DNA of 64,000 nucleotides from Planctomycetales bacterium (GTDB lineage: Bacteria; Planctomycetota; Phycisphaerae; SM23-33), in contig JAUWNJ010000002.1 of NCBI GenBank assembly GCA_030612725.1, positions 64,542 to 128,541 of the forward strand, in the 5' to 3' direction. Position numbers and translations under genes: made by a program. The first letter of the stretch is position 1; the number at the start of each line of letters is the position of its first letter. The notes beneath the pieces were generated by a model. It did no database searches. It was not told where the DNA came from and saw only the letters and a list, made by a program, of their open reading frames with translations. This document shows, one piece after another, positions 3,416 through 62,963 of the stretch.

Positions 3416-4210
3416 CTATGCTCTTTTCCTGCGGAGGATAACGCCAACCAGACCAACACCCAGAAGCGTCAGGGTCATCGGTTCGGGAACGACCTTGGCC
3501 ACAATGCTGCCACCAACGCCGTCGGTCCTTGTCAACTGCCAATCAGAGGTCTTACCACCGACAACTGTGAAGTCTGTGAAAAGCGTGGTGTCAAGAGTAC
3601 CAACCACGGACATTATCACGATTTCTGCATTTAGCACTTCGGCGTAACCACTAGCATCCAGCACGAGTCCACCGGCCAGGGTGGCATCACCGGCGACAGT
3701 AATCGTCGAAAGCTTGCTGCCATCATTGTCCGGCTTAACCCTCAGTGTTCCTGCTCCACTCCACTTGATGATCCAGTTACCGGCTACGTCAACCGTGCAG
3801 TTGGAACCAACTACTGTGAGTCCCCAATCGCCTGCACCCTCGAAGCCCCATGTCCCGGTATGATAGATACCGGTTCCGGACACCGTGACGCCGCCGGGAT
3901 TGACGGCGTTGCCGGCATTGTAGAGCTGGCTTTTCTTTGCAGTCAGCACGCCGCCTGAAGTAATCCTCACGCCCATTCCACCAAACAAATAACTGACTGT
4001 GCCTGCGTCCGCAGTAATAAGGGGATCCAGGGCGGTGAAACCATCGATTTGGGCGGCATCAGCCGCTCCCGGCACCATGCCGTTAGACCAATTATTAGGA
4101 TCGCCCCAATCTTCGCTGACATCGCCGGTCCAAATTTCATTACCAAACGCCGGTGCCGACAAAGCAACCACCGCCAGTACTGCCAATAAAATCGTTACAT
4201 TTCTCATCAT
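3416..4210 (-). CDS. PEP-CTERM sorting domain-containing secreted protein
   Basis: Signal peptide MMRNVTILLAVLAVVALSAPAFG and a C-terminal VPEPMTLTLLGVGLVGVILRRKRA (PEP motif, TM helix, Arg cluster). GGAGAG RBS upstream of the ATG at 4210. Confidence 0.75.
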   Translation of the reverse strand: MMRNVTILLAVLAVVALSAPAFGNEIWTGDVSEDWGDPNNWSNGMVPGAADAAQIDGFTALDPLITADAGTVSYLFGGMGVRITSGGVLTAKKSQLYNAGNAVNPGGVTVSGTGIYHTGTWGFEGAGDWGLTVVGSNCTVDVAGNWIIKWSGAGTLRVKPDNDGSKLSTITVAGDATLAGGLVLDASGYAEVLNAEIVIMSVVGTLDTTLFTDFTVVGGKTSDWQLTRTDGVGGSIVAKVVPEPMTLTLLGVGLVGVILRRKRA

Positions 4211-4665
4211 TTCTCTCCTCACTTCTCCCAGCGCCGGTTTTCCAACGGCACGCCCGTTAGTTGCCGGCACCATAACTAAAAAACCTTTCTTTACAAAATT
4301 ACAACCACAAAATCACAACCAGACTTGCGTTGCACCCTGCCTCCTTTCTTAAAAAGGCTCCAAAGAAACCAAACTTCAGGATATTAACTAGACTAGACTT
4401 GCGTTCTGTCTCCGCATTACCTTCCTTCGACAACTCACATGCCAAACAAGAAATGTGCTCCAATTCTCTTACGCCAGCCAGATCAACTGGCATAGGAACC
4501 GTAATCCTCATCTCAATCAACCGCGATTCTATCACGGTATGCCGAGATTGTCAAGGGATAAAACCATTTTTTTTACAATTTTTTGCGGGATTCAAAATGA
4601 ACTGAAGAGAAGAGGGAGAAAGGGGCGGGCGCTTTATGCCTTTCAGGGTCAGGCGTCTTATTTGG

Positions 4666-7872: not shown

Positions 7873-8826
7873 CTACCGACTTCTGCGGCGGCGTCTGAAT
7901 ATCGCCAGGCTGCCGAGGGTCAGCAACAACAGCGAGGCAGGTTCGGGAACGATGCCCAGCATATCGCTGCCGCCGTCGTAACCCATCACCCACATCCGGT
8001 ATCCGGTGGTGTATCCCTCTTCCTGGTTGAATATACCGACCACGTCAAACGTGCCACCAAGATTGCTGGGGTCGCTAAAGACATCGGACATTCCCAGACG
8101 GCAAGGCAACGTCAGGCCGGTGCCGTCAGTGATCTCCATCTCTACGTCAGGACCCCACAGATTCGCATCGACGAAACTGACGTCGTTGATGCGGACCAGC
8201 CTCGCCTGGTAATACTCCCCACCGATTAAGCGTGTGTCGTCGAAGATGTCATTGTTCGAGGCGTCCTTGACATCCGCCAGCGTAATCACTTCCGGCGCGG
8301 GCAGCCCCGGCGTGCTGTCCAGCCATTCGACGGTGAAGTCCATTCCCGAAGCGGAACAGTGTCGCTCGTTGACGTTGGTCTTGCCGTTGTACCCCTTGAT
8401 GTAGCCGGTAACGCGCACCCTGTCGCCCATGCGGATGCGGTGAGCGTCGTCGTAGTTCAGACGGTTCAACTCGTCGTTCCACTCCGTTTCCGTATAGTCC
8501 ACGTCGCCCATCCTGCTGTATTTTTGTCCCATCCAGCAGGCGGTCCCGGCGTGGTCGCCACCTTCGCCCTGAACGTAAATCTGCCACTGGCCGCCCATCC
8601 ATGCAGGGGCGTCGTAGGCCGGGTCGAGCATATCCTCGGGGTTGTTCAGCACGACCCCCTCCAACACAACCGTCAGCGTTGCACCCTCCTTCAGGTGCGT
8701 GGCGTGACCGGTGTTATCGACAGCCTGAATTTCCCAGTGAGTTTCAGCCTGTACCATCGCTGCGACGAGCAGCAGTGCAACTGTTCCAATAACGAGACTT
8801 TTTGTAACTTTTGCGAGCATGAGCAT
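7873..8826 (-). CDS. PEP-CTERM sorting domain-containing secreted protein
   Basis: Signal peptide MLMLAKVTKSLVIGTVALLLVAAMVQA and a C-terminal IVPEPASLLLLTLGSLAIFRRRRRSR. Confidence 0.75.
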   Translation of the reverse strand: MLMLAKVTKSLVIGTVALLLVAAMVQAETHWEIQAVDNTGHATHLKEGATLTVVLEGVVLNNPEDMLDPAYDAPAWMGGQWQIYVQGEGGDHAGTACWMGQKYSRMGDVDYTETEWNDELNRLNYDDAHRIRMGDRVRVTGYIKGYNGKTNVNERHCSASGMDFTVEWLDSTPGLPAPEVITLADVKDASNNDIFDDTRLIGGEYYQARLVRINDVSFVDANLWGPDVEMEITDGTGLTLPCRLGMSDVFSDPSNLGGTFDVVGIFNQEEGYTTGYRMWVMGYDGGSDMLGIVPEPASLLLLTLGSLAIFRRRRRSR

Positions 8827-9095
8827 TCTCCTTTCCTCTGACTTCGAGCACATAACAAAAAGAACTTCATCGCAGTCCGTAGGACTCTTCGAGAGCACGC
8901 AGAGAGAGCAGAGAAAAGAAACAAAAAAGTTTTTTTATTTGTTCTCTGCGTTTTCTGCGTTCTCTGCGTTCATCTTAATTATGGTCTCCTGATCGCCATT
9001 CGGGTTGAGCATTGACACAATCAAGCCACGGCGGTATTAACTATCTCTGGAAAGTTAATACTTCCGACGGCGATATTAAGAAAGAAAAAAATCGT

Positions 9096-15990: not shown

Positions 15991-17406
15991 TTAGGGGAGT
16001 TGTTCGACCAGCATTTTGAGCAGGGTTTTTGTGGGCATGGTTTTTGGTCCCGCCGGCGTCATCCATCGGCAGGAGTGGTGGTTTTCGGCGAGCATTTTTT
16101 CAACCCGTTGCACGGCAAGGACTACTGAAGAATGGTTCTTACCCGTGAATTGCCCTATTTCAGGAAAACTCATTCTCGTGTGTCGTCGGGTCAGGTACAT
16201 CGTGATGGCGCGGGCGAGGCTGACGGTGTGCGTTCGTCGCGATGAGTGGATGTCCGCCGGTGTGATTCCGAAGAATGCCGACGTAACCGTTTCGATCTCG
16301 CCGAGCGTTACGGCGCTGTCGGTTCTAACGAGGTGGTCGGCAAGTACGTCGCGGGTCAGGTCGAGCGTTACGGGTTCGCCTGCGAGTTTCGCCAGGGCAG
16401 AGAGTTTCACCAGCGCGCCTTCCAGTTCGCGGACCGAGCCGTGAATGTGCATGGCAATGTATTCCACCACGTCGCGCGGCGCGGGAAGTTTCATCTTCAA
16501 AGCGAGCCTGCGGAGAATTTTGATTCTCGTTGTCCGGTCGGGCGGGTCGATCCTGACGACCATTCCCGAAAGGAATCGGCTGACGAGTTGTTCTGTGAGT
16601 TTCCCAAGCAGACGCGGATGAGCGTCCGAAGCCATCACAATCTGCTTATCTGCGCCGTGGATGGTGTTGAAGGTGTGAAGAAACTCCTCCTGCGTAGCCT
16701 TCTTGGCGGCGAGAAAGTGAACGTCGTCGATGACCAGCAGGTCAAGCCGACGGTAGGTTTTCCGAAAGGCATCCGTTTTTTTATACCTTATGCCCTGGAC
16801 GAAATCGTTCGTGAACCGCTCTGCGGTGATGTATTTCCATGTGAGTTTTCTACCGTTGTTGTTTTGGGCGACGGCGTTGCAGATTCCCTGAAGAAGGTGA
16901 GTTTTTCCCACGCCGCAGGTTCCGTGGATGAACAGCGGGTTGAATGTTACCTTGCTGTTCTGAGCGACGGAAAGCGCCGCCGAGTATGCCAGTTTATTCG
17001 ATGTCCCGGTTACGAAATCCTCTAATTTATATCGCAGTTTGGACGCCGGCGCTAATTTTCGTCGGGCAGTTCCAGCCGTTCCACGATTCACAAGGTTTGC
17101 CTGAACGTCCAGTTGGCGTCCGCGAAGACGTCCGCTCAACGTCGGGTCCACGGAGACTGTTACGCGCCTTTGCCGACCGGTAACTTCCCTGCTTGCAGCC
17201 GCTAAGTCTTCCGCGAAGTGGCTTTCGATCCACCCGGCGATAAACGGATTGGCCGCATCGACCTTGACGTCCTCGTTTTCGACGGAGACCTGCGCAGCGT
17301 TCTTGAACCAGGCGTTAAATTTCTGTGTACCGATTCGCCTATGAACAACCTCAAGGACTGCGTCTGTCGGGTCCGTTCGGGCACATGCACCTATTTCGGC
17401 GGACAT
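15991..17406 (-). CDS. dnaA: chromosomal replication initiator protein DnaA
   Basis: AAA+ Walker A GTCGVGKTHLL, the sensor motif, and a C-terminal DNA-binding domain (...ITMYLTRRHTRMSFPEIGQFTGKNHSSVV). Confidence 0.95.
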   Translation of the reverse strand: MSAEIGACARTDPTDAVLEVVHRRIGTQKFNAWFKNAAQVSVENEDVKVDAANPFIAGWIESHFAEDLAAASREVTGRQRRVTVSVDPTLSGRLRGRQLDVQANLVNRGTAGTARRKLAPASKLRYKLEDFVTGTSNKLAYSAALSVAQNSKVTFNPLFIHGTCGVGKTHLLQGICNAVAQNNNGRKLTWKYITAERFTNDFVQGIRYKKTDAFRKTYRRLDLLVIDDVHFLAAKKATQEEFLHTFNTIHGADKQIVMASDAHPRLLGKLTEQLVSRFLSGMVVRIDPPDRTTRIKILRRLALKMKLPAPRDVVEYIAMHIHGSVRELEGALVKLSALAKLAGEPVTLDLTRDVLADHLVRTDSAVTLGEIETVTSAFFGITPADIHSSRRTHTVSLARAITMYLTRRHTRMSFPEIGQFTGKNHSSVVLAVQRVEKMLAENHHSCRWMTPAGPKTMPTKTLLKMLVEQLP

Positions 17407-17908
17407 TTTCTATTCCTTTTTCGACCGGGCAGTAATACCGCCGGAAACACACCAGTTCTTGCGGTATCGATAAAATCTGATCTGAAATCCTGTTTTATGA
17501 AACTCAACCAACGCATACGAATTTATCATCGACTCGACTACTGTCAAAGTGGTAATTGTCGCTTTTCTTATCCACATCAAGTCAAGCCTCGCTTGCAGAG
17601 AAACTTCCGAAGCAAAGTTTTTTTTCATTCACCGGTTATGCACAAAATTTCCACGAAGCGCGACCGTGAAAAGAAAAATTAGCAGGGATGCAGGGGATAA
17701 AGAGGATAAAACATCTTTTCAAAATTCAAACAGGTGCTTTTCTTCTTATTGAAATTCGCTTTTTATCCCGTGCATCCCCTGCATCCCTGCTAATTCTTTT
17801 CCCTGTATTCCTGCTGGTTCTTGAAAATTTGTTGTTTGACAATCGCCGTTCGAAAATCGACAATTGGCAATCGACAATCGGCAATTGGCAATTGAAGGAG
17901 TTTTTACA
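17407..17908. promoter_or_regulatory. putative oriC and dnaA promoter region
   Basis: Perfect DnaA box TTATCCACA at 17568-17576 and TTATGCACA at 17636-17644, plus 7/9 variants (TTATCCTCT rc near 17702, TTATCCCGT near 17766). A perfect 22-bp inverted repeat (17677-17698 / 17774-17795) flanks the AT-rich tract. Confidence 0.6.
17838..17895. repeat. tandem CAATYGRCAAT array in the 5' leader of the 17909 gene (family also at 19125-19160 and 46461-46504)
   Basis: gacaatcgccgttcgaaaatcgacaattggcaatcgacaatcggcaattggcaattg. Confidence 0.7.
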
Positions 17909-18571
17909 GTGAGATACTTCGTAGCGATTCCGGCATTGTGTCTGGTTTTTGCGTTGTTGACGGCCTCGGCTGAGCCGGTTCCCAAACCCGGCGTGGTGGC
18001 GAGAAGCTGGGAATTGGAATTCGAGTACACAACGCCCCAGCCATTTGAGATCCAGTTGCCCGGATGGAAGGAAAAGCGAACCTTCTGGTACATGCTTTAC
18101 ACTATAAGCAATCGAAGCGGCACTGATCGCATCTTCGTACCGGAGTTCTGCCTCTACACCGACACCGGTGATGTCCGCCGGGGCGGTGATCGGGTCTCCG
18201 CCGGGGTATTCCGAGCCATTAAAAAACGCCACAATAATCCGCTATTGACGGATATGGCCTTTATTACCGGGAAGGTACTCCAGGGTGCCGATAACGCCAG
18301 GGACGGCGTGGCGATATGGACGGATTTTGACCACAAAGCACGTGGTTTCAACGTATTTGTGGGAGGGCTTAGCGGCGAGCGGAAAAAGGTAAAACTGCCT
18401 AAACCCATCACCGTTACTGTTGCCGACGAGAACGGAAAAGAGAAAAAGGCAACCAAGACCGAAGTCGTTCTCTCTAAAACGCTGAGCCTGCGGTACTTCC
18501 TTCCCGGCGACGCATCCGCCAGATCGGCTGACACGCCCCAACTCCGGAAAAAGCAGTGGGTGATGCGGTAA
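17909..18571 (+). CDS. hypothetical secreted protein
   Basis: GTG start 7 nt after an AAGGAG RBS. Signal peptide VRYFVAIPALCLVFALLTASA. No known domain. Confidence 0.55.
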   Translation: MRYFVAIPALCLVFALLTASAEPVPKPGVVARSWELEFEYTTPQPFEIQLPGWKEKRTFWYMLYTISNRSGTDRIFVPEFCLYTDTGDVRRGGDRVSAGVFRAIKKRHNNPLLTDMAFITGKVLQGADNARDGVAIWTDFDHKARGFNVFVGGLSGERKKVKLPKPITVTVADENGKEKKATKTEVVLSKTLSLRYFLPGDASARSADTPQLRKKQWVMR

Positions 18572-18573
18572 TT

Positions 18574-18648
18574 ATTGCGGATTGTGGATTGTGGATTGCG
18601 GATTGCACACACTCGCTGATTTGTTGGAATCCGCAATCCACAATCCGA
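18574..18648. repeat. inverted repeat built of GGATTGTGGATT units (terminator-like hairpin)
   Basis: Left arm tgcggattgtggattgtggattgcggattgc, right arm gaatccgcaatccacaatccg, about 20-nt loop. Starts 3 nt after the stop of the 17909 gene. Confidence 0.75.
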
Positions 18649-18813
18649 AATTGGTAAAAAATCGGCTCAAACCTTACACAACATTCGTGCCGAAATGCAG
18701 TGCTGGAAAAATTAGTCAGACACGATTGACTCCGTATCGTTATGATTGTAGAATACGTGCGGTTAGATGAGGGATTTGTCAGCGATTTGGTTAGATGATT
18801 ATTGAGGTAGGAA

Positions 18814-19047
18814 ATGGCACATAAAAAGGGACAAGGTTCTTCTCGTAACGGTAGAGACTCAAACGCCCAGAATCGTGGCGTCAAGCGGTTCGGTGGTCAG
18901 ACGGTATTGGCCGGTACGATTATCGTTCGTCAATGCGGTACTCCCAAGAAACCCGGGGTCAACGTCGGAATTGGACGCGATAACACGCTCTTCGCCAAAA
19001 GCGACGGATGCGTACGCTTTCGCGGGCGCTTCGTGGACATCATCTAA
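18814..19047 (+). CDS. rpmA: 50S ribosomal protein L27
   Basis: [28 protein letters not shown] is the canonical bL27 N-terminus. Confidence 0.9.
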
Positions 19048-19184: not shown

Positions 19185-20954
19185 ATGTTTTTGGACGAAG
19201 TGAACATTATGGTAATCGCCGGTAACGGCGGGGATGGGTGCGTAAGTTTCCGGCGAGAGAAATTCATCCCCCACGGCGGCCCGGACGGGGGAGACGGGGG
19301 AAACGGCGGGAGCGTTTATTGCCTGGCTGACCCTACCGTCAACACACTCTACCACATTGCCGGCAAACACCACTGGAAAGCCACTCACGGCGGCAGGGGA
19401 ATGGGTAAAAAATGCCATGGCCGCAACGGTGTTGATGTTGTCGTTCGCGTCCCGCCCGGAACGATTATCCACGATGCCGAGCACGGCATAGTGCTCAAAG
19501 ACCTCGCCGAAGAGGGCCAAAAGGTTTGCGTCGCACAAGGCGGCCACGGCGGCAAGGGCAACGTCCATTTCGCCACTTCAACCCATCAGACCCCGCGCGA
19601 AGCCATACCGGGTAAGTCAGGACAGACCCGCCGGCTTCACATGGAACTCAAACTCGTCGCCGACGTAGGGCTTGCAGGACTTCCGAACGCCGGTAAAAGC
19701 ACGCTCCTGCGACGACTGTCCGCCGCCAGACCCAAAGTGGCTGATTATCCGTTCACTACGCTTGAGCCGGTTCTCGGAATCGTGGAACTATCAGGGCATC
19801 GACGGTTCGTCATGGTTGATATTCCGGGGCTTATTGAAGGCGCGCATCGTGGCGTGGGGCTGGGCGAGGAGTTTCTCAGGCATGTCCAGCGGGCTTCGAT
19901 TCTCGTCCATATCGTCGATATCTGCCCGCAGACCGGCGATGCCGTCGAAAATTACCACACGATCAATGACGAACTGCGACAGTATTCGTCGGAATTGGCC
20001 GAAAAACCGCAGATCGTCGTCGCAAACAAAATGGACCTGACCGACAGCGACGAAAACCTCGCCCGATTCACCCAAGCCGTCGAATGCGATGTCATCGCCA
20101 TATCAGCAGTTACCGGAAAAGGGCTCGATAAACTGACCGAACGGATATGGAAAGTGCTGAAGGACAGGGACTTGGGACTAGGGATTAGGGAAAAGAAGAA
20201 ACATATGAACAAGACCGAATCCATTCTTGCTTGTGATGTCGGAAATTCTCGGATTGCGGTGGGATGCGTGGTCGATGAGGAAGTTTCGCACGTCCGGCAA
20301 GTTTCCCCCGACAATCTCGGCGATGCGCTGGCGGATTTATGGTCCGAGTGTCCCAAGCCGGCGATAATCGCAGCCTGTTCGGTCCAGGCTGAATATCTGG
20401 CGGAACTTGAAAAGGCGTCCAAACATATCGACCAGAAGGTTCTCGTGGTTGGGCGCGACCTTCCGCTGCCGATAGAGACGAATCTGTCCGAACCGGAAAG
20501 TATCGGAACCGACCGTCTTTGCGCAGCGGCGATGGCGTATCACCGCCTCGGCAGTGCCTGCGTCGTAGCCGATTTCGGTACAGCCATTACCATCGACTGC
20601 GTTAATGACGAGGGCGTCTTCCTCGGCGGAGCGATCCTGCCGGGGCTTGGTCTGTCCGCCGAGGCGTTGGCTAACGGTACGTCGGCCCTGCCTGCTGTGG
20701 AGTTGACCAAACCTGATTGGGTTTTCGGAGCCGACACACGCCAGGCAATTATCGGCGGGATAGTTACCGGCGCACGTGGCGCGATGAGGGAACTTGTCGA
20801 ATCCTACGCAACAGAATTAGGCGCTTGGCCCGAAGTAATCCTCACCGGCGGCGACGCCGAGATTGTCGGAGCAGGCTGCGACATAGTCAACGCCATCATC
20901 CCGGACTTGACGCTGTTGGGGGTTGCGCTATCGGCCCGGAATGTTCAGAAATGA
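19185..20954 (+). CDS. obg: GTPase Obg fused in frame to a type III pantothenate kinase (CoaX) domain
   Basis: Residues 1-320: Obg glycine-rich N-domain and G domain (GLPNAGKST, DIPGLIEGA, NKMD). Linker KDRDLGLGIREKKKH, then MNKTESILACDVGNSRIAVG..., a CoaX/Bvg-accessory fold, to the stop at 20954. No stop codon between the two parts. Confidence 0.8.
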   Translation: MFLDEVNIMVIAGNGGDGCVSFRREKFIPHGGPDGGDGGNGGSVYCLADPTVNTLYHIAGKHHWKATHGGRGMGKKCHGRNGVDVVVRVPPGTIIHDAEHGIVLKDLAEEGQKVCVAQGGHGGKGNVHFATSTHQTPREAIPGKSGQTRRLHMELKLVADVGLAGLPNAGKSTLLRRLSAARPKVADYPFTTLEPVLGIVELSGHRRFVMVDIPGLIEGAHRGVGLGEEFLRHVQRASILVHIVDICPQTGDAVENYHTINDELRQYSSELAEKPQIVVANKMDLTDSDENLARFTQAVECDVIAISAVTGKGLDKLTERIWKVLKDRDLGLGIREKKKHMNKTESILACDVGNSRIAVGCVVDEEVSHVRQVSPDNLGDALADLWSECPKPAIIAACSVQAEYLAELEKASKHIDQKVLVVGRDLPLPIETNLSEPESIGTDRLCAAAMAYHRLGSACVVADFGTAITIDCVNDEGVFLGGAILPGLGLSAEALANGTSALPAVELTKPDWVFGADTRQAIIGGIVTGARGAMRELVESYATELGAWPEVILTGGDAEIVGAGCDIVNAIIPDLTLLGVALSARNVQK

Positions 20955-22078
20955 ACTCGCCGACGATAACATCGGCATCGCTGGTTACTTCGCCCGCTCG
21001 CGGCGGAATCGCCGTCATTATCCTGACAGGCCCGGAAACCAAACGAATCATCGGCGAAATCTTCCGACCAGTATCGCAGACCGGCGGGCAGGGGAGCTTG
21101 GCATTGGGGCGAATTGTCCGTGATGGCGAGGTGCTCGACGAGGCGATTGTCTCAACACTCGCCGACGATTGTTGCGAGATTAACATCCACGGCGGGCCTC
21201 ACGTTGCGAGAAAAGTCCTTTCGCTATTGTCTGAACGAGGCGTACATATTGTTTCTGATTGCCAAGCCGATTCGACGCTGACGCTGTCTGCGCCGGGGCT
21301 GGGAAATTCCGCAATTACGGAAGAATTTCTCTCGGCATTACGCAAGGTATCTACGCCGCTTGGGGCATCGGCATTGAGTTGCCAATGGTCGGGCGGATTG
21401 TCGGTGTTGGCGAATCGGACGAAAGTCGATGCCGCTGCTCTCCGCGCTGCCGCCGATGCGATTCCGATAATGCGCCGATTACTGGAACCGGCTGAGATCG
21501 TCATCGCCGGACCCCCCAATGCCGGAAAAAGCGCCCTGGCTAACGCGCTGGTCGGGCGAAATGTCGCCATAGTGTCCGAAACGCCGGGCACGACGCGGGA
21601 CTGGGTACGCACTCTTACCGACGCCGACGGCGTACCAATCTGGTTGACCGACACTGCCGGACTTTGGGAAGAAGCCGAAGGTATCGACGCCGAAGCCGTC
21701 CGGCGAGCATGGGAACGGATCGAATCAGCCGACCTGGTTATCTGTGTTACCGTCGGCGACGATGACGGATATGACGGCCTGGTCGCACATCTCCACACGC
21801 TGACGAATGTCATTAATGTCGTCGGAAAATGCGATATTACCCGCCCGGAAGAATGTAAGGGGAAACTGGCAGTCTCTGCCAAGACATTTACCGGAATTAC
21901 CGATCTTCGACGGGCCATTTGCGAGGATTTGGGGTTTGGTGGCTTCGATCCGTCTTCAGCGATGGCATTCACCGAGCGCCAGGTCGAATGGCTTGGTATC
22001 GCTGCCGAGGCGATTGACCGGGGCGATCAGGCAGGAGCACGATTGGCATTGGAGAATCTGCTCCAAGCCGACGGATAG
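20951..22078 (+). CDS. mnmE: tRNA modification GTPase MnmE-like (shortened C-terminus)
   Basis: MnmE N-domain, then G domain GPPNAGKSALAN...TPGTTRD...DTAG. The ATG overlaps the coaX-part stop (ATGA). The protein ends ...LENLLQADG and lacks the usual C-terminal CxGK tail. Confidence 0.75.
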   Translation: MNSPTITSASLVTSPARGGIAVIILTGPETKRIIGEIFRPVSQTGGQGSLALGRIVRDGEVLDEAIVSTLADDCCEINIHGGPHVARKVLSLLSERGVHIVSDCQADSTLTLSAPGLGNSAITEEFLSALRKVSTPLGASALSCQWSGGLSVLANRTKVDAAALRAAADAIPIMRRLLEPAEIVIAGPPNAGKSALANALVGRNVAIVSETPGTTRDWVRTLTDADGVPIWLTDTAGLWEEAEGIDAEAVRRAWERIESADLVICVTVGDDDGYDGLVAHLHTLTNVINVVGKCDITRPEECKGKLAVSAKTFTGITDLRRAICEDLGFGGFDPSSAMAFTERQVEWLGIAAEAIDRGDQAGARLALENLLQADG

Positions 22079-28877: not shown

Positions 28878-29152
28878 AAATCCAAAATACGAATATCGAA
28901 ATACGAAACAAATTCGAATGACCGAATTCTCAAAATCCGAAACGAACTTGGACAACCAAAATCCAAAACGAAAGCACTATGACCTTGAAGATCGAACCTT
29001 TGAGAAAACGAGCGTGTCGCTTTGGTTCAGGAAAGCACTGAACTGATGAACATTTTCGGTTCCATCCTTCGCAAGAGCGAATGATATTTTGAACATTTGA
29101 ATTTCGTATTTCGAATTTGTTTCGTATTTCGGATTTCGATATTCGGATTTAT
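28876..29152. repeat. MITE-like palindromic element, AATCCGAAA/ATACGAAA family, copy 1 (rpe|accD)
   Basis: Left arm aatccaaaatacgaatatcgaaatacgaaacaaattcgaatgaccgaattctcaaaatccgaaacg and right arm ...ttgaatttcgtatttcgaatttgtttcgtatttcggatttcgatattcggattt are imperfect reverse complements. About 150 bp core. No ORF. Confidence 0.8.
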
Positions 29153-36588: not shown

Positions 36589-36598
36589 AATTAATTAG

Positions 36599-36682
36599 CG
36601 GTCAGCAATCAGCGTTCAGCAGTCAGCAATTAAGTGTGTTACTTTTTCTTTTACTGACCGCTGATTGCTGACTGCTGATTGC
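36599..36682. repeat. inverted repeat built of CAGCAATCAG units between ptsH and ptsI
   Basis: Left arm gcggtcagcaatcagcgttcagcagtcagcaat, right arm actgaccgctgattgctgactgctgattgc. The same unit family recurs at 60586-60709. Confidence 0.75.
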
Positions 36683-36690
36683 TCTTCTTC

Positions 36691-41747: not shown

Positions 41748-42239
41748 ATGAGCGTGAACGAATATCAAGGCAAGTTGATCGCGCCGGCCGGTGCGAAGTT
41801 CGCCGTTATCGTCAGCCGGTTCAACGAGTTCATTACATCGAAACTGATGTCGGGTGCAATTGACGCGCTGACCCGTCACGGTGCAGGCGACAGCGACATT
41901 GACGTGGTATGGTCGCCGGGATGTTTCGAGATTCCGCTGTTATGCCGGCGTCTGGCAGAATCCGGAAAGTATGCCGGAGTGATTTGCCTGGGGGCGGTGA
42001 TTCGCGGCGGGACGGAGCATCACCGATACATCGCGTCGGAAGTTACCAAGGGAATAGCAGCCACATCTCTGGCAACCGGCCTGCCGTGCATCTTCGGCAT
42101 CCTGACCTGCGACACCATCGAGCAGGCGGTAGAGCGGGCAGGAACCAAGAGCGGAAACAAAGGCGCCGACGCAGCCATTGCCGCTATCGAAATGACTAAC
42201 CTGATGGGGCAACTGCCTGCCACGAATTCCACGAAGTAA
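41748..42239 (+). CDS. ribH: 6,7-dimethyl-8-ribityllumazine synthase
   Basis: [20 protein letters not shown]...[10 protein letters not shown]. Confidence 0.9.
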
Positions 42240-42319
42240 GTAATTCGTAATTGGTAATTCGTAATTCGTAAAAAAACCGATGCTCTGTTACCAATTACGA
42301 ATTACCAATTACGAATTAC
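42240..42319. repeat. 27-bp near-perfect inverted repeat of TAATTCGTAATTGG units between ribH and nusB
   Basis: Left arm gtaattcgtaattggtaattcgtaattcgta, loop aaaaaaaccgatgctctg, right arm ttaccaattacgaattaccaattacgaattac. Confidence 0.8.
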
Positions 42320-42346
42320 AAAATTCATGGAACGGAGTTTTTCGGA

Positions 42347-42763
42347 GTGATTGAGCACCACAAAGCAAGGCTGATGGCGATGCAGGGTCTTTGTTGCCTG
42401 GACGTTCAGGGCGATGACGGCATGGATGCAACGCTGGGATTTTTCCGCGACGGTAAGGAAAGCCTCGAAACCACCGACGAGGCGGAATGCATGATTCGCG
42501 GCGTTCTTGCCGAAAGGAACGAAATCGACGAACTCCTCAGCGGGCAAAGCCGGCACTGGAAAGTCGCTCGCATGGGGCTTCTGGAGCGAAATATCCTGCG
42601 GCTGGCTGTTTGGGAACTACTGACAACCCACACGCCGAAAAAAGTCGTCATCAACGAAGCAATTCGCCTGGCGAAGGAATTCGCCTCGGCTGAATCGTCA
42701 AAGTTCGTCAACGGCGTACTCGATGCAACAGCGGAAAGAATCACAGAGAATAGTAGTCAGTAG
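42347..42763 (+). CDS. nusB: transcription antitermination factor NusB
   Basis: NusB fold: ARLMAMQGLCCLDVQ...ERNILRLAVWEL. Confidence 0.9.
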   Translation: MIEHHKARLMAMQGLCCLDVQGDDGMDATLGFFRDGKESLETTDEAECMIRGVLAERNEIDELLSGQSRHWKVARMGLLERNILRLAVWELLTTHTPKKVVINEAIRLAKEFASAESSKFVNGVLDATAERITENSSQ

Positions 42764-42932
42764 TAAAATCCGAATATCGAAATCCGAAATCCGAAACAAT
42801 ATCGAAATACGAATGGCCAAAATTAGAAACACCATTTTCAAGTTGTCGTATAGTTTGAAACATTTGAAAATTCGGATTTTGAATTTGTTTCGGATTTCGG
42901 ATTTCGGATTTCAATATTCGGATTTAAGTACC
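42764..42932. repeat. MITE-like palindromic element, AATCCGAAA/ATACGAAA family, copy 2 (nusB|ftsY)
   Basis: Left arm aaaatccgaatatcgaaatccgaaatccgaaacaatatcgaaatacgaatggccaaaat, right arm aaaattcggattttgaatttgtttcggatttcggatttcggatttcaatattcggattt. Starts immediately after the nusB stop. Confidence 0.8.
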
Positions 42933-42965
42933 ACCTATTAAACACCACACGCGGAGCGTGAATAA

Positions 42966-45005: not shown

Positions 45006-45965
45006 ATGCTCGCAAAAAAGCAAATTTCACTTGGTAGGATTTTCGGACTCGCTCTGTCGGCGGCGGTCTTGTTGGGCTCGGTGGACGCCGCGTTTGCATT
45101 CCGATTCGGCACGATGTGTGACAGCCGCGGCAACCCCGTCAATGTGGCCGTTCTCAGCCAACTTATTACCGACATGAATGCACATGACCCTGCCTTCTGC
45201 CTTTTCCCCGGCGACCTTGTTGCAGGCTTCACAAGTGACGCTGAAGAGATGGAGCGTCAATTGGGCATATGGATAGATGCAACCAGCCACTTCACGGGAA
45301 CGATGTACGTGACTCCGGGCAACCACGACATAATCAATTATGGGAATTCGGCTACATGGCGGAAGATGTTTCCGGACATGCCCCAAAACGGCCCCGATAA
45401 ACCCGATTCTCTGTTTAACGAAAAAGGCCTCACGTATTACTTTGATCATGGTAACAGCCGGTTCATCAGCATTACTTCCGACCATGAATTAATCCCGTCA
45501 GGGTGGGTCGATTGTTCGTGGCCGGATGATATCCTCAGCGAAAGCACGGGTTTCGAGCACGTATTCGTGACAACCCATCATCCATGCTCTGACCTGGGCG
45601 GAGCGTCGGGCGATTACTGGCAGACGCTCGTGAGCCACGGCGTTGATGCCGTTTTCTGTGGCCATCACCATAAATACAGCCACAGTCAGCCGAGTGGGCC
45701 GGACACGACGTGGGATGTCATTGTGGGCACGGCAGGCGCCCCGCTTTGGGGAGGGCAGAAATACGGATACCTGATTGTGGATGTTACCGGCCCCTACGTC
45801 GAGGCCAGGTTCTACGCAGATCTCGATCACGATGGTCATTACGACGATCTCAGCGACACTTTCGTCATCGCCGTTCCGGAGCCGGGCACTATGGCACTGC
45901 TGACCCTCGGCGCGGTTGGCGTCCTGTTTAAGCGGAGGCGGAAAAGGCGCACGTCCGGGCGCTGA
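45006..45965 (+). CDS. calcineurin-like metallophosphoesterase with PEP-CTERM anchor
   Basis: Signal peptide, phosphoesterase motifs GDLV, GNHD, GHHH, and a C-terminal VPEPGTMALLTLGAVGVLFKRRRKRR. Confidence 0.7.
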   Translation: MLAKKQISLGRIFGLALSAAVLLGSVDAAFAFRFGTMCDSRGNPVNVAVLSQLITDMNAHDPAFCLFPGDLVAGFTSDAEEMERQLGIWIDATSHFTGTMYVTPGNHDIINYGNSATWRKMFPDMPQNGPDKPDSLFNEKGLTYYFDHGNSRFISITSDHELIPSGWVDCSWPDDILSESTGFEHVFVTTHHPCSDLGGASGDYWQTLVSHGVDAVFCGHHHKYSHSQPSGPDTTWDVIVGTAGAPLWGGQKYGYLIVDVTGPYVEARFYADLDHDGHYDDLSDTFVIAVPEPGTMALLTLGAVGVLFKRRRKRRTSGR

Positions 45966-53387: not shown

Positions 53388-53531
53388 CTGTGTTCGCGTT
53401 TGCGCGCGCAAACGCGAACGTAAAAATCGGAGGAAATGAAAATTCCAAAAAAACTTTTCCCAAGGCCACCAAGGACTTATGGCGTCGCTATCCGTTTTGT
53501 GTTCGCGTTTGCGCGCGCAAACGCGAACGCA
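53388..53531. promoter_or_regulatory. two copies of a 33-bp direct repeat, each containing a perfect 28-bp palindrome, upstream of the PEP-CTERM protease gene
   Basis: gttcgcgtttgcgcgcgcaaacgcgaac at 53392-53419 and 53501-53528, 109 bp apart. They lie 136 and 245 nt upstream of the protease start. Confidence 0.6.
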
Positions 53532-53711
53532 AAAGTTAATACGGAGAGAATAGGGACTAGGGACTTGGGACTAGGGACTTGGAAAAAAGAAACAGATGGG
53601 CCGTTTAGGCAAGATGGGCAAAATAGGCAATGGCGGATTTTTTAAAATGGGCGTAAAAATGACACTAAAATACGCAAATCTATGCACGCCAAGGAGTTAT
53701 GGGTTTTGCAA

Positions 53712-53820
53712 TTTTTCCCAATTGTTCCGAATCGTTCCCAATCGTTCCGAATCGTTCCCAATCGTTCCCAATCGTTCCCAATTGTTCCGAATTGTTCCGT
53801 TTCGTTCCGTTTCGTTCCAC
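53712..53820. repeat. tandem array of about 11 copies of the 10-mer ATCGTTCCCA (variants ATTGTTCCGA, TTCGTTCCGT)
   Basis: Unit boundaries were read directly from the sequence. No spacers, so this is not CRISPR-like. Confidence 0.85.
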
Positions 53821-59018: not shown

Positions 59019-59036
59019 ATGAAATCATTACGCAAA

Positions 59037-59200
59037 ATTCGAATATCGAAATCCGAAATTCGAAACAATATCGAAATACAAATGACCAAAATCCGAAACA
59101 TAAATACACAAACATTTTCAATGTTCTGTGTTTGGGACATTAGAAAATTCGGATTTTGAATTTGTTTCGTATTTCGAGATTCGTATTTCGGATTTAAAAA
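59037..59200. repeat. MITE-like palindromic element, AATCCGAAA/ATACGAAA family, copy 4 (mrdA|rodA)
   Basis: Left arm aaattcgaatatcgaaatccgaaattcgaaacaatatcgaaatacaaatgaccaaaatccgaaac, right arm aaaattcggattttgaatttgtttcgtatttcgagattcgtatttcggattt. Internal hairpin aacatt-ttc-aatgtt. Confidence 0.8.
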
Positions 59201-60580: not shown

Positions 60581-60585
60581 AAAAA

Positions 60586-60709
60586 GCGATCAGCGATCAG
60601 CAGTCAGCAAAAGATGAAAAAGACCGCTGTGCGTCACGTAGTGATGCTACGCATAGCACCGCGTAGCGATACTACGTACCACTACGTGGAACGCTGATTG
60701 CTGATTGCT
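60586..60709. repeat. nested hairpin element (outer CAGCAATCAG-unit stem, inner cacgtagtg/cactacgtg and gctacgc/gcgtagc stems) between convergent rodA and the downstream gene
   Basis: Left arm agcgatcagcgatcagcagtcagcaaaag, right arm gaacgctgattgctgattgct. Inner palindromes were read directly from the sequence. Confidence 0.75.
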
Positions 60710-62088: not shown

Positions 62089-62700
62089 AAAGAAGAAGAA
62101 AAGGAATAGCAGGATTACAGGGATTACCGGATTACAGGGATTTTTATTTTTGCTGAAAAAAGAAGAGGAAAAAGAAAGGCAGGGGGATTGCAGGGATTGG
62201 TTTTAATTCTCAAATCTTCTTACTTGCAAAGAAGACGAGCCGAAATTTATCAGCAGCGCAACCAGCAACCTGGAGGCTTTTAAGTAACTGATAGTCTGTG
62301 CTCGGTGCTCCTTAATCGTATCGACAACGGCCTTCAGTTCGACAATAACCTTTCCTTCAACAACCATGTCAGGCCTGTATGTACCACAAAGCATTCCCTC
62401 GTAAAAAACTTCGAATTCACGCTGTGACTCAAATGAAATTCCTGTGAGCATCAATTCCTTGGAAAGCGCTTTGTGATATGTCGATTCGGTGAAACCGGCG
62501 CCAAGCGTTCCGTGAACTTCATGAGCGGCCCCGATAATGTTATAAGTAAGTGCGTTAATGGGATCGTCAGCGTCCAAACCACCCCGAACACCAACAACAC
62601 CCCCGACTTCTTTTTCTGTTTCTTTTGTTCCTTTTAACAAAATAAAAATCCCTGTAATCCGGTAATCCCTGTAATCCTGCTATTCCTTTTCTTCTTCTTT
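62089..62700. mobile_element. cassette: GxxExxY gene bounded by a perfect 62-bp inverted repeat, abutting the 3' end of tRNA-Ser
   Basis: IR-L at 62089-62150 is exactly the reverse complement of IR-R at 62639-62700 (aaagaagaagaaaaggaatagcaggattacagggattaccggattacagggatttttatttt). Extra GGGATTG/CAGGGATTGG motifs at 62071-62086 and 62180-62199. Confidence 0.7.
62203..62640 (-). CDS. GxxExxY family protein (PD-(D/E)XK-like)
   Basis: YNIIGAAHEVHGTLGAGFTESTYHKAL (the GxxExxY motif), then ...VELKAV...LINFG. TTG start immediately adjacent to IR-R. Confidence 0.85.
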   Translation of the reverse strand: MLKGTKETEKEVGGVVGVRGGLDADDPINALTYNIIGAAHEVHGTLGAGFTESTYHKALSKELMLTGISFESQREFEVFYEGMLCGTYRPDMVVEGKVIVELKAVVDTIKEHRAQTISYLKASRLLVALLINFGSSSLQVRRFEN

Positions 62701-62707
62701 TCTTTAA

Positions 62708-62792
<85 letters not shown>

Positions 62793-62963
62793 ATAGGCTC
62801 CGATTTTACCAAAGCCTTTTCCGTGTTGCACGCGTTGATTTGACGCTTGTGGGGATATTCAACTTGTCGGCCTTGCTGTGCCGATGTAAGATTATACCGT
62901 AAAGTCGGAAAATGCGTAACTTTACGTCGTGTACGGCGTTTAAATTAAAGAACGAACCGGCAG

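Follow-up and report, generated by a model that had tools for sequence, protein, structure and literature searches.

A conserved DnaA-box module on the dnaA promoter of an uncultured planctomycete and a gene-less hairpin repeat beside it

The dnaA locus

Upstream of dnaA in a 64-kb stretch of planctomycete DNA (contig JAUWNJ010000002.1; the whole 64,000-nt stretch is called the window below) lies a region of about 500 bp that contains DnaA boxes, a predicted dnaA promoter, a perfect inverted repeat and an array of short tandem repeats. An initial annotation took this region for a putative replication origin (oriC). We consider it quite probable that its elements are of three separate kinds: a conserved DnaA module on the dnaA promoter, an unrelated gene-less hairpin repeat, and heptamer arrays that are not origin features.

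The dnaA product scores 417 bits against the TIGR00362 equivalog model (cut-off 344). It was compared with 80 loci from a DnaA-based scan, one genome per species (the relatives, L-numbers below), all from uncultured Planctomycetota labelled Phycisphaerae, Sedimentisphaerales or similar and spanning 95% to 44% DnaA identity. The gene and its module are composed as follows.

15991-17406, minus strand: dnaA coding sequence, 471 amino acids (Pfam DnaA_N, Bac_DnaA and Bac_DnaA_C; NCBIfam TIGR00362)
17520-17547, minus strand: predicted σ70-type dnaA promoter; -35 TTGACA (17542-17547), 16-nt spacer, TG-extended -10 TAAATT (17520-17525)
17568-17576, plus strand: box d, the consensus DnaA box TTATCCACA (TGTGGATAA on the dnaA sense strand), read from the sequence
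17601-17620, no strand: palindrome between the boxes, AAACTT (17601-17606)-N8-AAGTTT (17615-17620)
17614-17625, no strand: AT-only run AAAGTTTTTTTT, A8 on the dnaA strand, abutting box c
17625-17633, plus strand: box c, TCATTCACC, 6/9 matches
17636-17644, plus strand: box b, TTATGCACA, 8/9 matches
17647-17655, plus strand: box a, ATTTCCACG, 6/9 matches

The DnaA-box module

The conserved module is ~135 bp long (17520-17655) and combines DnaA boxes, an A/T run and the dnaA promoter. In the orientation of dnaA it begins with box a (CGTGGAAAT), box b (TGTGCATAA) and box c (GGTGAATGA), each separated from the next by 2 nt, followed by the A8 run; it continues with CTTT-N-CAAGTTT, ~25 nt, CTTG-N7-TGTGGATAAGAAA (the last element being box d), 20 nt, TTGACA, 16 nt and TG-TAAATT. 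Boxes a, b and c share one orientation and start 11 bp apart, and 20 bp separate box d from the -35 element downstream of it. The promoter has 10 of 12 consensus matches and its TTGACA/TAAATT pair was chosen independently by a promoter scan; the predicted leader extends ~105-110 nt to the ATG at 17406.

Direct reading bears out the consensus box at 17568-17576 and the variant at 17636-17644 that had been listed in the initial annotation, as well as its claim of at least three 7/9 boxes, which are found, all on the minus strand, at 17465 (TTATCGATA), 17692 (TTATCCCCT) and 17701 (TTATCCTCT). The latter two lie at the inner end of the left arm of the inverted repeat, and are taken up again below. 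That no better cluster exists elsewhere holds within the window: the 300-bp interval 17406-17705 is the best DnaA-box cluster of the 64 kb, with a score of 9 against 4 for the next best. This score is reached by 1 of 100 block shuffles, which is modest evidence taken alone and strong evidence together with conservation in relatives.

Conservation of the module is seen in an alignment of the DNA upstream of dnaA from 31 relatives. Its architecture is common to the window and L001-L031, down to ~56% DnaA identity. The TGT and GTG cores of the boxes, TGTG.ATAA of box d, the AA of CAAG and the TTGA of the -35 element are invariant; the -10 element is nearly so. Boxes b and d are spaced 67-68 bp apart in every relative in which both are strong, and 7-10 A or T directly follow box c in nearly all 31 sequences (close relatives have A8-CTTT here, distant ones GAAAG-T9). 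Distant relatives retain the order of box, T-run, CAAG, TGTGGATAAGAAA and promoter, with the upstream part of the module swapped for two inward-facing boxes of the opposite orientation, also 11 bp apart. Over all 80 relatives, boxes with at most one mismatch occur at 6.1 per kb between -400 and -200 of dnaA, ~40-fold above a background of ~0.15 per kb, and no second box cluster is found within 4 kb on either side of dnaA, downstream included.

Two details of layout can be added. The AAACTT-N8-AAGTTT palindrome occupies the same position in L001-L013, whereas distant relatives retain only its CAAG; another protein may bind there. Secondly, L032-L077 (Sedimentisphaerales-like and other distant relatives) have, 200-450 bp upstream of dnaA, two boxes in the TTATCCACA orientation, 11 bp apart, facing boxes in the TGTGGATAA orientation, with an AT-rich stretch and an 8-10-nt T run between or beside them. 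This inward-facing layout looks more origin-like than that of the window.

The locus combines a box cluster well above background, as looked for in an oriC, with a conserved promoter directly upstream of dnaA and a consensus box nearby, as looked for in an autoregulated promoter. As judged by sequence and conservation, 17520-17655 is a putative DnaA-assembly region of fixed geometry that sits on the dnaA promoter and would control dnaA, and DnaA-dependent control of this gene by the module is very likely. DnaA would bind the consensus box d, and would occupy boxes a-c cooperatively from one face of the helix by virtue of the 11-bp spacing. Occupancy of box d should feed back on dnaA transcription, because of its position 20 bp upstream of the -35 element.

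Origin or promoter control

Whether replication also starts here is a separate matter, on which we lean slightly toward a start in the dnaA-upstream intergenic region. Because an elaborate fixed geometry is retained across the whole clade, the module is the foremost candidate for the DnaA-box portion of oriC. This much of the origin proposed by the initial annotation stands: the cluster is the sole one in the window, and its fixed spacing is conserved across the clade. The inverted repeat most probably does not form part of it. If an origin is located here, the A/T run would be the sole conserved candidate for first opening, and the module may be a compact oriC of non-canonical layout, in which the homopolymer run takes the place of box-oriented DnaA-trios.

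Several observations weigh against an origin at this site, or at least do not favor one. There are only 4 boxes, 2 of them strong, and relatives have a median of 2 boxes that deviate at no more than one position. Conserved AT-rich sequence is confined to the 12-14-bp run (17614-17625), with no conserved unwinding element of more than ~13 bp, and the AT-rich loop of the hairpin is not conserved. The R1/DUE (DNA-unwinding element) geometry of E. coli was one guide to the side on which unwinding should occur. The "5'-tail encoding DnaA-trios" of published box-spacer-trio rules was the other (PMC8287927); conserved boxes b, c and d do not conform to this rule, and the A-run is on the wrong side of boxes a-c for it. 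Genes that commonly mark an origin (dnaN, gyrB, parAB, rpmH and yidC) are absent among the annotated genes of the window, a weak MnmE-like GTPase being the sole exception, and no parS site is found in the 64 kb at up to 3 mismatches from consensus. The gene downstream of dnaA encodes a fused MFS (major facilitator superfamily)/spermidine-synthase protein (NF037959, 61 bits, cut-off 40) in place of dnaN, just as initially described.

GC skew adds no switch at the locus. In the window, skew tracks gene orientation (both as whole-window skew and as per-gene skew at third codon positions), and no GC-skew or gene-strand switch is seen at the locus once the coding-strand effect is counted. Pooled over 67-68 relatives with 4 kb per side, skew is +0.013 on both sides, again with no switch; in 55 of 67 loci the gene next upstream points the same way as dnaA. 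Being dominated by the coding strand or showing no switch, GC skew at this scale is uninformative: it neither places nor excludes an origin.

The region could instead be nothing but an autoregulated dnaA promoter, with the chromosome origin elsewhere on the replicon, and we regard this as a serious possibility, a little short of an even chance. The oriC of E. coli, for example, lies 42 kb from dnaA. The paucity of strong boxes fits such an explanation, as do the lack of a conserved unwinding element or box-trio module, the lack of a skew or strand switch in window and relatives, and the missing dnaN and other typical origin neighbours; the location of box d suits transcriptional control. On the other hand, 4-5 boxes, 11-bp phasing, a rigid 67-68-bp spacing and an invariant A/T run, all kept across a whole class, make an architecture more elaborate and less flexible than autoregulation alone usually calls for. 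Moreover, the module adjoins dnaA, as origins do in most bacteria, and no competing cluster is seen in the 64 kb of the window or within 4 kb of dnaA in the 80 relatives. For comparison, no characterised origin of this planctomycete group, and nothing specific on planctomycete oriC, was found in the searchable literature.

Known systems provide partial parallels to the module. A TTATCCACA-type box cluster directly upstream of dnaA is found at origins that lie beside dnaA and at autoregulated dnaA promoters (E. coli dnaAp; B. subtilis incA/incB), and the combination of a high-affinity box near a σ70 promoter with helically phased low-affinity boxes is likewise shared with dnaAp and incA/incB. 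Unlike these systems, the window has ~4 boxes and lacks a long AT-rich unwinding element, a downstream dnaN and an upstream rpmH; also unlike them, it has at its centre a homopolymer A/T run of 8-10 nt, which different subclades carry on different strands. The basal unwinding system is reportedly made up of a DnaA-box pair and DnaA-trios (Richardson in 2016 and Pelliciari in 2021). The tandem boxes ~11 bp apart beside an A-rich or T-rich run resemble that system (PMC8287927); unlike it, the run of the window's clade is on the wrong side and strand, and the only formal match lies inside the non-conserved hairpin. As a type of feature the DnaA-box module is ordinary; it is well conserved and might plausibly be an origin. 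For an uncultured planctomycete class it provides a candidate that can be tested as the DnaA-binding core, whether of the origin or of the dnaA control region.

The inverted repeat beside the module

The second element of the region is the inverted repeat, and the perfect 22-bp arms reported for it, 75 nt apart, are found as described.

17674-17798, no strand: gene-less hairpin repeat; perfect 22-nt arms aattagcagggatgcaggggat at 17677-17698 and its reverse complement at 17774-17795, 75 nt apart
17777-17822, no strand: tandem duplication of the outer arm, period 24, 1.9 copies (Tandem Repeats Finder; alignment with L001, L003 and L004)

The arms can be extended to 38 nt (17674-17711 and 17761-17798) at 87% complementarity, and a degenerate second copy of the outer arm occupies ~17801-17822. 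The stems are composed of tandem 9-mers, GCAGGGAT-GCAGGGGAT-(GCACGGGAT), and enclose an AT-rich loop. Folded as single-stranded DNA, the hairpin attains -34.3 kcal/mol as compared with -13.0 ± 2.6 for shuffled sequences (z = -8.25), and none of 200 shuffles does as well. No direct duplication is seen flanking 17674-17798, and Rfam searches of 17300-18900 yield only sub-threshold matches to plant-miRNA hairpins, that is, a generic hairpin.

The initial annotation had suggested that this repeat might be the unwinding element or a regulated site, in other words a DNA-unwinding or cruciform regulatory element integral to oriC. Certain features do favor this. At 30-33% GC, the loop is richer in A and T than any other part of the region. 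It is on the side of boxes a-c on which the canonical orientation, by E. coli R1/DUE geometry, predicts unwinding. The box-spacer-trio rule finds a formal match at 17668-17709 (equalled by 4 of 300 shuffles), and the arms are conserved in L003 with one compensatory change. The distribution of the hairpin among relatives speaks to the contrary. It lies outside the conserved DnaA module, and it is not retained with the module as an origin cruciform should be. In L001 (95% DnaA identity) 16 nt of one arm are left and the module follows directly. In L002 (93% identity) the hairpin is disrupted, with a different hairpin in its place. L003 keeps the perfect repeat by way of a compensatory G>A/C>T change around an unrelated loop of ~30 nt, and L004 and L005 have imperfect versions. 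From L006 onward (L006-L031 included) the hairpin is absent, and in L007-L013 the end of a GNAT (GCN5-related N-acetyltransferase) gene lies 20-40 bp from box a. An intact module is nevertheless present in L001, L002 and L006-L031. The hairpin-internal boxes are degraded to 3-4 mismatches in L003 and L004.

This pattern of presence and absence (L001-L005 versus L006 onward) indicates a hairpin that was present in the ancestor of a small subclade, is dispensable and changes fast. Together with the family relationship described in the next section it makes an unwinding or cruciform role within oriC very improbable, L001 by itself largely refuting that role. The formal box-trio module at 17668-17709 was rejected as a candidate, being built from generic repeat parts, confined to the hairpin and absent in L001. 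For origin prediction the case carries a caution: the eye-catching, perfect, cruciform-capable repeat with its near-boxes appears to be a passenger, and the signal resides in a plain, conserved 135-bp box array.

L002 deserves separate mention. Its neighbourhood upstream of dnaA is different, and at ~3480-3730 of that locus, also upstream of dnaA, a different inverted repeat of the CAGGCGGCTGTTCTCCGTCCCAAGGGGAGG type, present in three copies, replaces most of the hairpin. The dnaA-upstream intergenic region is a hot spot for repeat turnover.

A dispersed family of hairpins

The arm sequence is not confined to dnaA. A scan of metagenome contigs for the 17-mer GCAGGGATRCAGGGGAT yielded at least 120 stretches, 80 of which were fetched and examined. 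(To place the copies relative to open reading frames (ORFs), only distances from upstream stop codons were used, because the ORF caller over-extends starts.) The 17-mer is followed by a third GCAGGGGAT unit in 52 of 87 distinct copies, where chance would give 0.13%. An inverted partner is present within 600 nt in 26 of the 80 loci, typically 50-150 nt away, and the paired copies fold as long hairpins (-35 to -124 kcal/mol), which often contain a further hairpin inside, made of other tandem units. Thus, what is found is what defines a dispersed repeat: many copies, mostly intergenic, with inverted pairs that form hairpins. DnaA is encoded at none of the 80 examined arm-carrying loci, so that the arm sequence has no specificity for origin loci.

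A terminal GGGGATAA and flanking sequence rich in purines are shared by many copies of the family. These two properties account for the 7/9 'boxes' of the window's hairpin and for its formal box-trio match. The box variants within the repeat, which the initial annotation had counted among DnaA sites, are the last GCAGGGGAT unit plus AA, as carried by many members of the family. Arms, purine-rich flank and GGGGATAA 'boxes' are, in other words, generic in a family of at least 120 stretches, with DnaA encoded at none of the 80 examined, which tells further against a part in unwinding. Literature searches returned no match to the repeat sequence.

Cassettes with GxxExxY nuclease genes

A clue to the nature of this family comes from repeats that do enclose a gene. 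At 62089-62182 and 62607-62700 the window has a 94-nt inverted repeat of GGATTACAG-type units that encloses a 145-amino-acid ORF and adjoins a tRNA-Ser gene (62707-62793). The ORF is a PDDEXK_3/GxxExxY protein (128 and 132 bits); a relationship to REP (repetitive extragenic palindromic) elements and their RAYT (REP-associated tyrosine transposase) genes was considered and rejected, this repeat-flanked ORF at 62.2 kb not being a Y1 transposase. At metagenome locus L108 a PDDEXK_3/GxxExxY homologue is bracketed by arms identical to the dnaA-upstream arm, TAGCAGGGATGCAGGGGAT.

GxxExxY homologues were sampled from several phyla, and the 12 loci with both flanks present were counted (window 62089-62700, L108, L201, L203, L204, L206, L209, L210, L211, L213, L215 and L216). 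In 12 of 12 the gene is tightly bracketed by inverted arms, which are 18-94 nt long and made of tandem 7-10-nt units with the cores CAG(G)(G)AT, CACGGATT or CGCAGAT. The cassettes sit between oppD and oppF, ruvA and ruvB, cas4 and cas1, nuoD and nuoE, between ATPase and permease genes of ABC (ATP-binding cassette) pairs, and after carA; their orientation is nearly always that of the genes on either side. Enclosure of GxxExxY genes in tandem-unit hairpins and the existence of many gene-less hairpins with the same arms point to a selfish cassette, and the arms suggest what the GxxExxY nuclease acts on. To our knowledge, GxxExxY proteins are a large family of unknown function; no description of their genomic context or of an association with hairpins was found in the accessible literature.

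The repeat upstream of dnaA has tandem-unit arms, and identical arms bracket a GxxExxY gene elsewhere (L108); the best interpretation is that of a copy without a gene, belonging to a dispersed family of hairpins in which the arms can also bracket GxxExxY genes. A copy would have entered, or lost its cargo, in the ancestor of the group formed by the window and L001-L005, some descendants later losing the hairpin. A more far-reaching version, which we put forward tentatively, makes the repeat a non-autonomous member of a hairpin cassette system present in several phyla, in which GxxExxY PD-(D/E)XK genes ride in the loops of CAG(G)GAT-type stems between genes of housekeeping operons and which spreads or is maintained through gene-less hairpins with the same arms, a counterpart of REP/RAYT with a different nuclease fold. 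The mechanism could be mobility by nuclease-induced recombination with the arms as homology, or alternatively excision at the level of RNA, as in the intervening sequences of rRNA.

Some observations sit less easily with a dispersed, dispensable repeat. At this one locus, lineages with only 80-82% DnaA identity have preserved the arms nearly perfectly, which hints at local or family-wide constraint on them and a possible role at dnaA. This exact unit is represented by a single copy in the 64 kb. Mobility, as well as action of the GxxExxY protein on the arms, is deduced from association only.

Another reading is a hairpin that serves its host, as DNA or as RNA: it might be an operator for a global DNA-binding protein, an insulator of supercoiling or transcription between the two divergent promoters, or a REP-like terminator and mRNA stabiliser. 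Many copies of the family do begin 0-20 nt after the end of an ORF, heptamer hairpins of the window follow stop codons at 18572 and 42227, and arm sequences are maintained across divergent lineages and unrelated contigs. At dnaA, however, no gene reads into the hairpin, which is upstream of both predicted promoters, and close relatives have lost it; no Rfam family is matched at threshold, and the link to cassettes of nuclease genes, seen in 12 of 12 loci, suggests that its origin is selfish. A host-serving element is, on balance, unlikely, and membership in the dispersed family remains our preferred reading of the repeat.

The family is like REP/REPIN (REP doublet forming hairpins) elements with RAYTs, and like miniature inverted-repeat transposable elements (MITEs), in consisting of short, dispersed, intergenic inverted repeats that form hairpins, and like REP/REPIN in that gene-less copies outnumber those flanking a small nuclease-type gene. 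It differs from REP/REPIN in that its stems are made of tandem 7-10-nt units (of the CAGGGGAT, CAGGATT and CGCAGAT types) in place of a single palindrome, and from REP/RAYT in that the associated gene is of the PD-(D/E)XK GxxExxY kind, with no IS200-like Y1 transposase seen. Unlike MITEs, no target-site duplication is seen, and the cassettes are placed between operon genes in operon orientation. A small ORF within a long complementary stem, inserted in a host transcription unit, also recalls the intervening sequences of 23S rRNA; here the hosts are protein-coding operons and intergenic regions, and the ORF is of a different family. The hairpin-family relationship is the unexpected part of this analysis, and the nuclease cassettes, although a side result, may matter more than the origin candidate.

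Heptamer arrays and the divergent gene

On the other side of the hairpin a divergent gene is preceded and followed by arrays of short repeats.

17836-17864, plus strand: promoter-like site of the divergent gene; -35 TTGACA, 17-nt spacer, GACAAT (consensus scan)
17838-17896, plus strand: heptamer array of AATYGRC units with periods 7/14/21, covering the promoter of the divergent gene and its 5' leader (Tandem Repeats Finder)
17909-18571, plus strand: divergent gene, 220 amino acids, hydrophobic N-terminus, no family match
18572-18660, plus strand: hairpin formed by heptamer arrays (GYGGATT units) in inverted arrangement, beginning one base past the stop codon; arms 18572-18607 and 18625-18660

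At the promoter-like site of the divergent gene TTGACAATCG is kept in L001, L003 and L004, as is the N-terminal coding sequence of the gene; L003 and L004 have different heptamer arrays at the position orthologous to 17838-17896. The hairpin after the gene contains a period-7 array at 18574-18646.

The two arrays, which had been noted as flanking this gene, are real, and are located where the initial annotation placed them. What falls away is their connection with the origin, because most spaces between genes throughout the window are filled by arrays of period 7. Tandem Repeats Finder detects about 20 intergenic arrays with periods of 7 or 14, and the AATYSRC dimer is observed 20 times against 2.2 expected. 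The heptamer arrays are a genome-wide intergenic class and not origin features. Inverted pairs of arrays directly after stop codons are found, for example, at 18572-18660, 36593-36683, 42227-42332, 42751-42940 and 59035-59195.

Array units are varied, often with a GATT or GGATT core, and many form inverted pairs that fold as hairpins right after stop codons. Beyond those at the divergent gene, arrays are located at 4293, 19129, 28878-29150, 34754, 36593-36683, 37505, 42227-42332, 42751-42940, 46472, 53551, 59035-59195 and 60585-60709. Intergenic heptamer arrays are known from cyanobacteria, Beggiatoaceae and others (PMC4679880, PMC6749651). The arrays of the window are like the cyanobacterial STRR (short tandemly repeated repetitive) sequences and the TAACTGA repeats of Beggiatoaceae (PMC4679880) in their period of 7, their intergenic location and their closeness to start codons; they are unlike them in having many different units, mostly with the GATT/GGATT core, and in typically occurring as inverted, hairpin-forming pairs.

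Neighbouring genes and further observations

Past the divergent gene the order is rpmA and then an ORF in which Obg is apparently fused to a type III pantothenate kinase. The latter (19185-20954, plus strand) is a single ORF of 589 amino acids that comprises a complete Obg GTPase (residues 1-345) and the kinase (residues 347-583). It is followed by the MnmE-like GTPase (20717-22078, plus strand), which scores 147 bits, far under the equivalog cut-off of 380; because its longest ORF overlaps the end of the Obg-fusion ORF by 238 nt, the true start is probably further downstream.

Elsewhere in the window, two copies of an element with a 37-nt perfect palindrome, TGTGTTCGCGTTTGCGCGCGCAAACGCGAACG, lie ~105 bp apart at 53389-53534 and 53715-53818, and are followed by an array of ~10 copies of the 10-mer TTCCSAATCG that overlaps the start of an ORF taken at its annotated length. 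Three proteins (encoded at 3416-4273, 7873-8898 and 45006-45965) have C-terminal PEP-CTERM sorting motifs.

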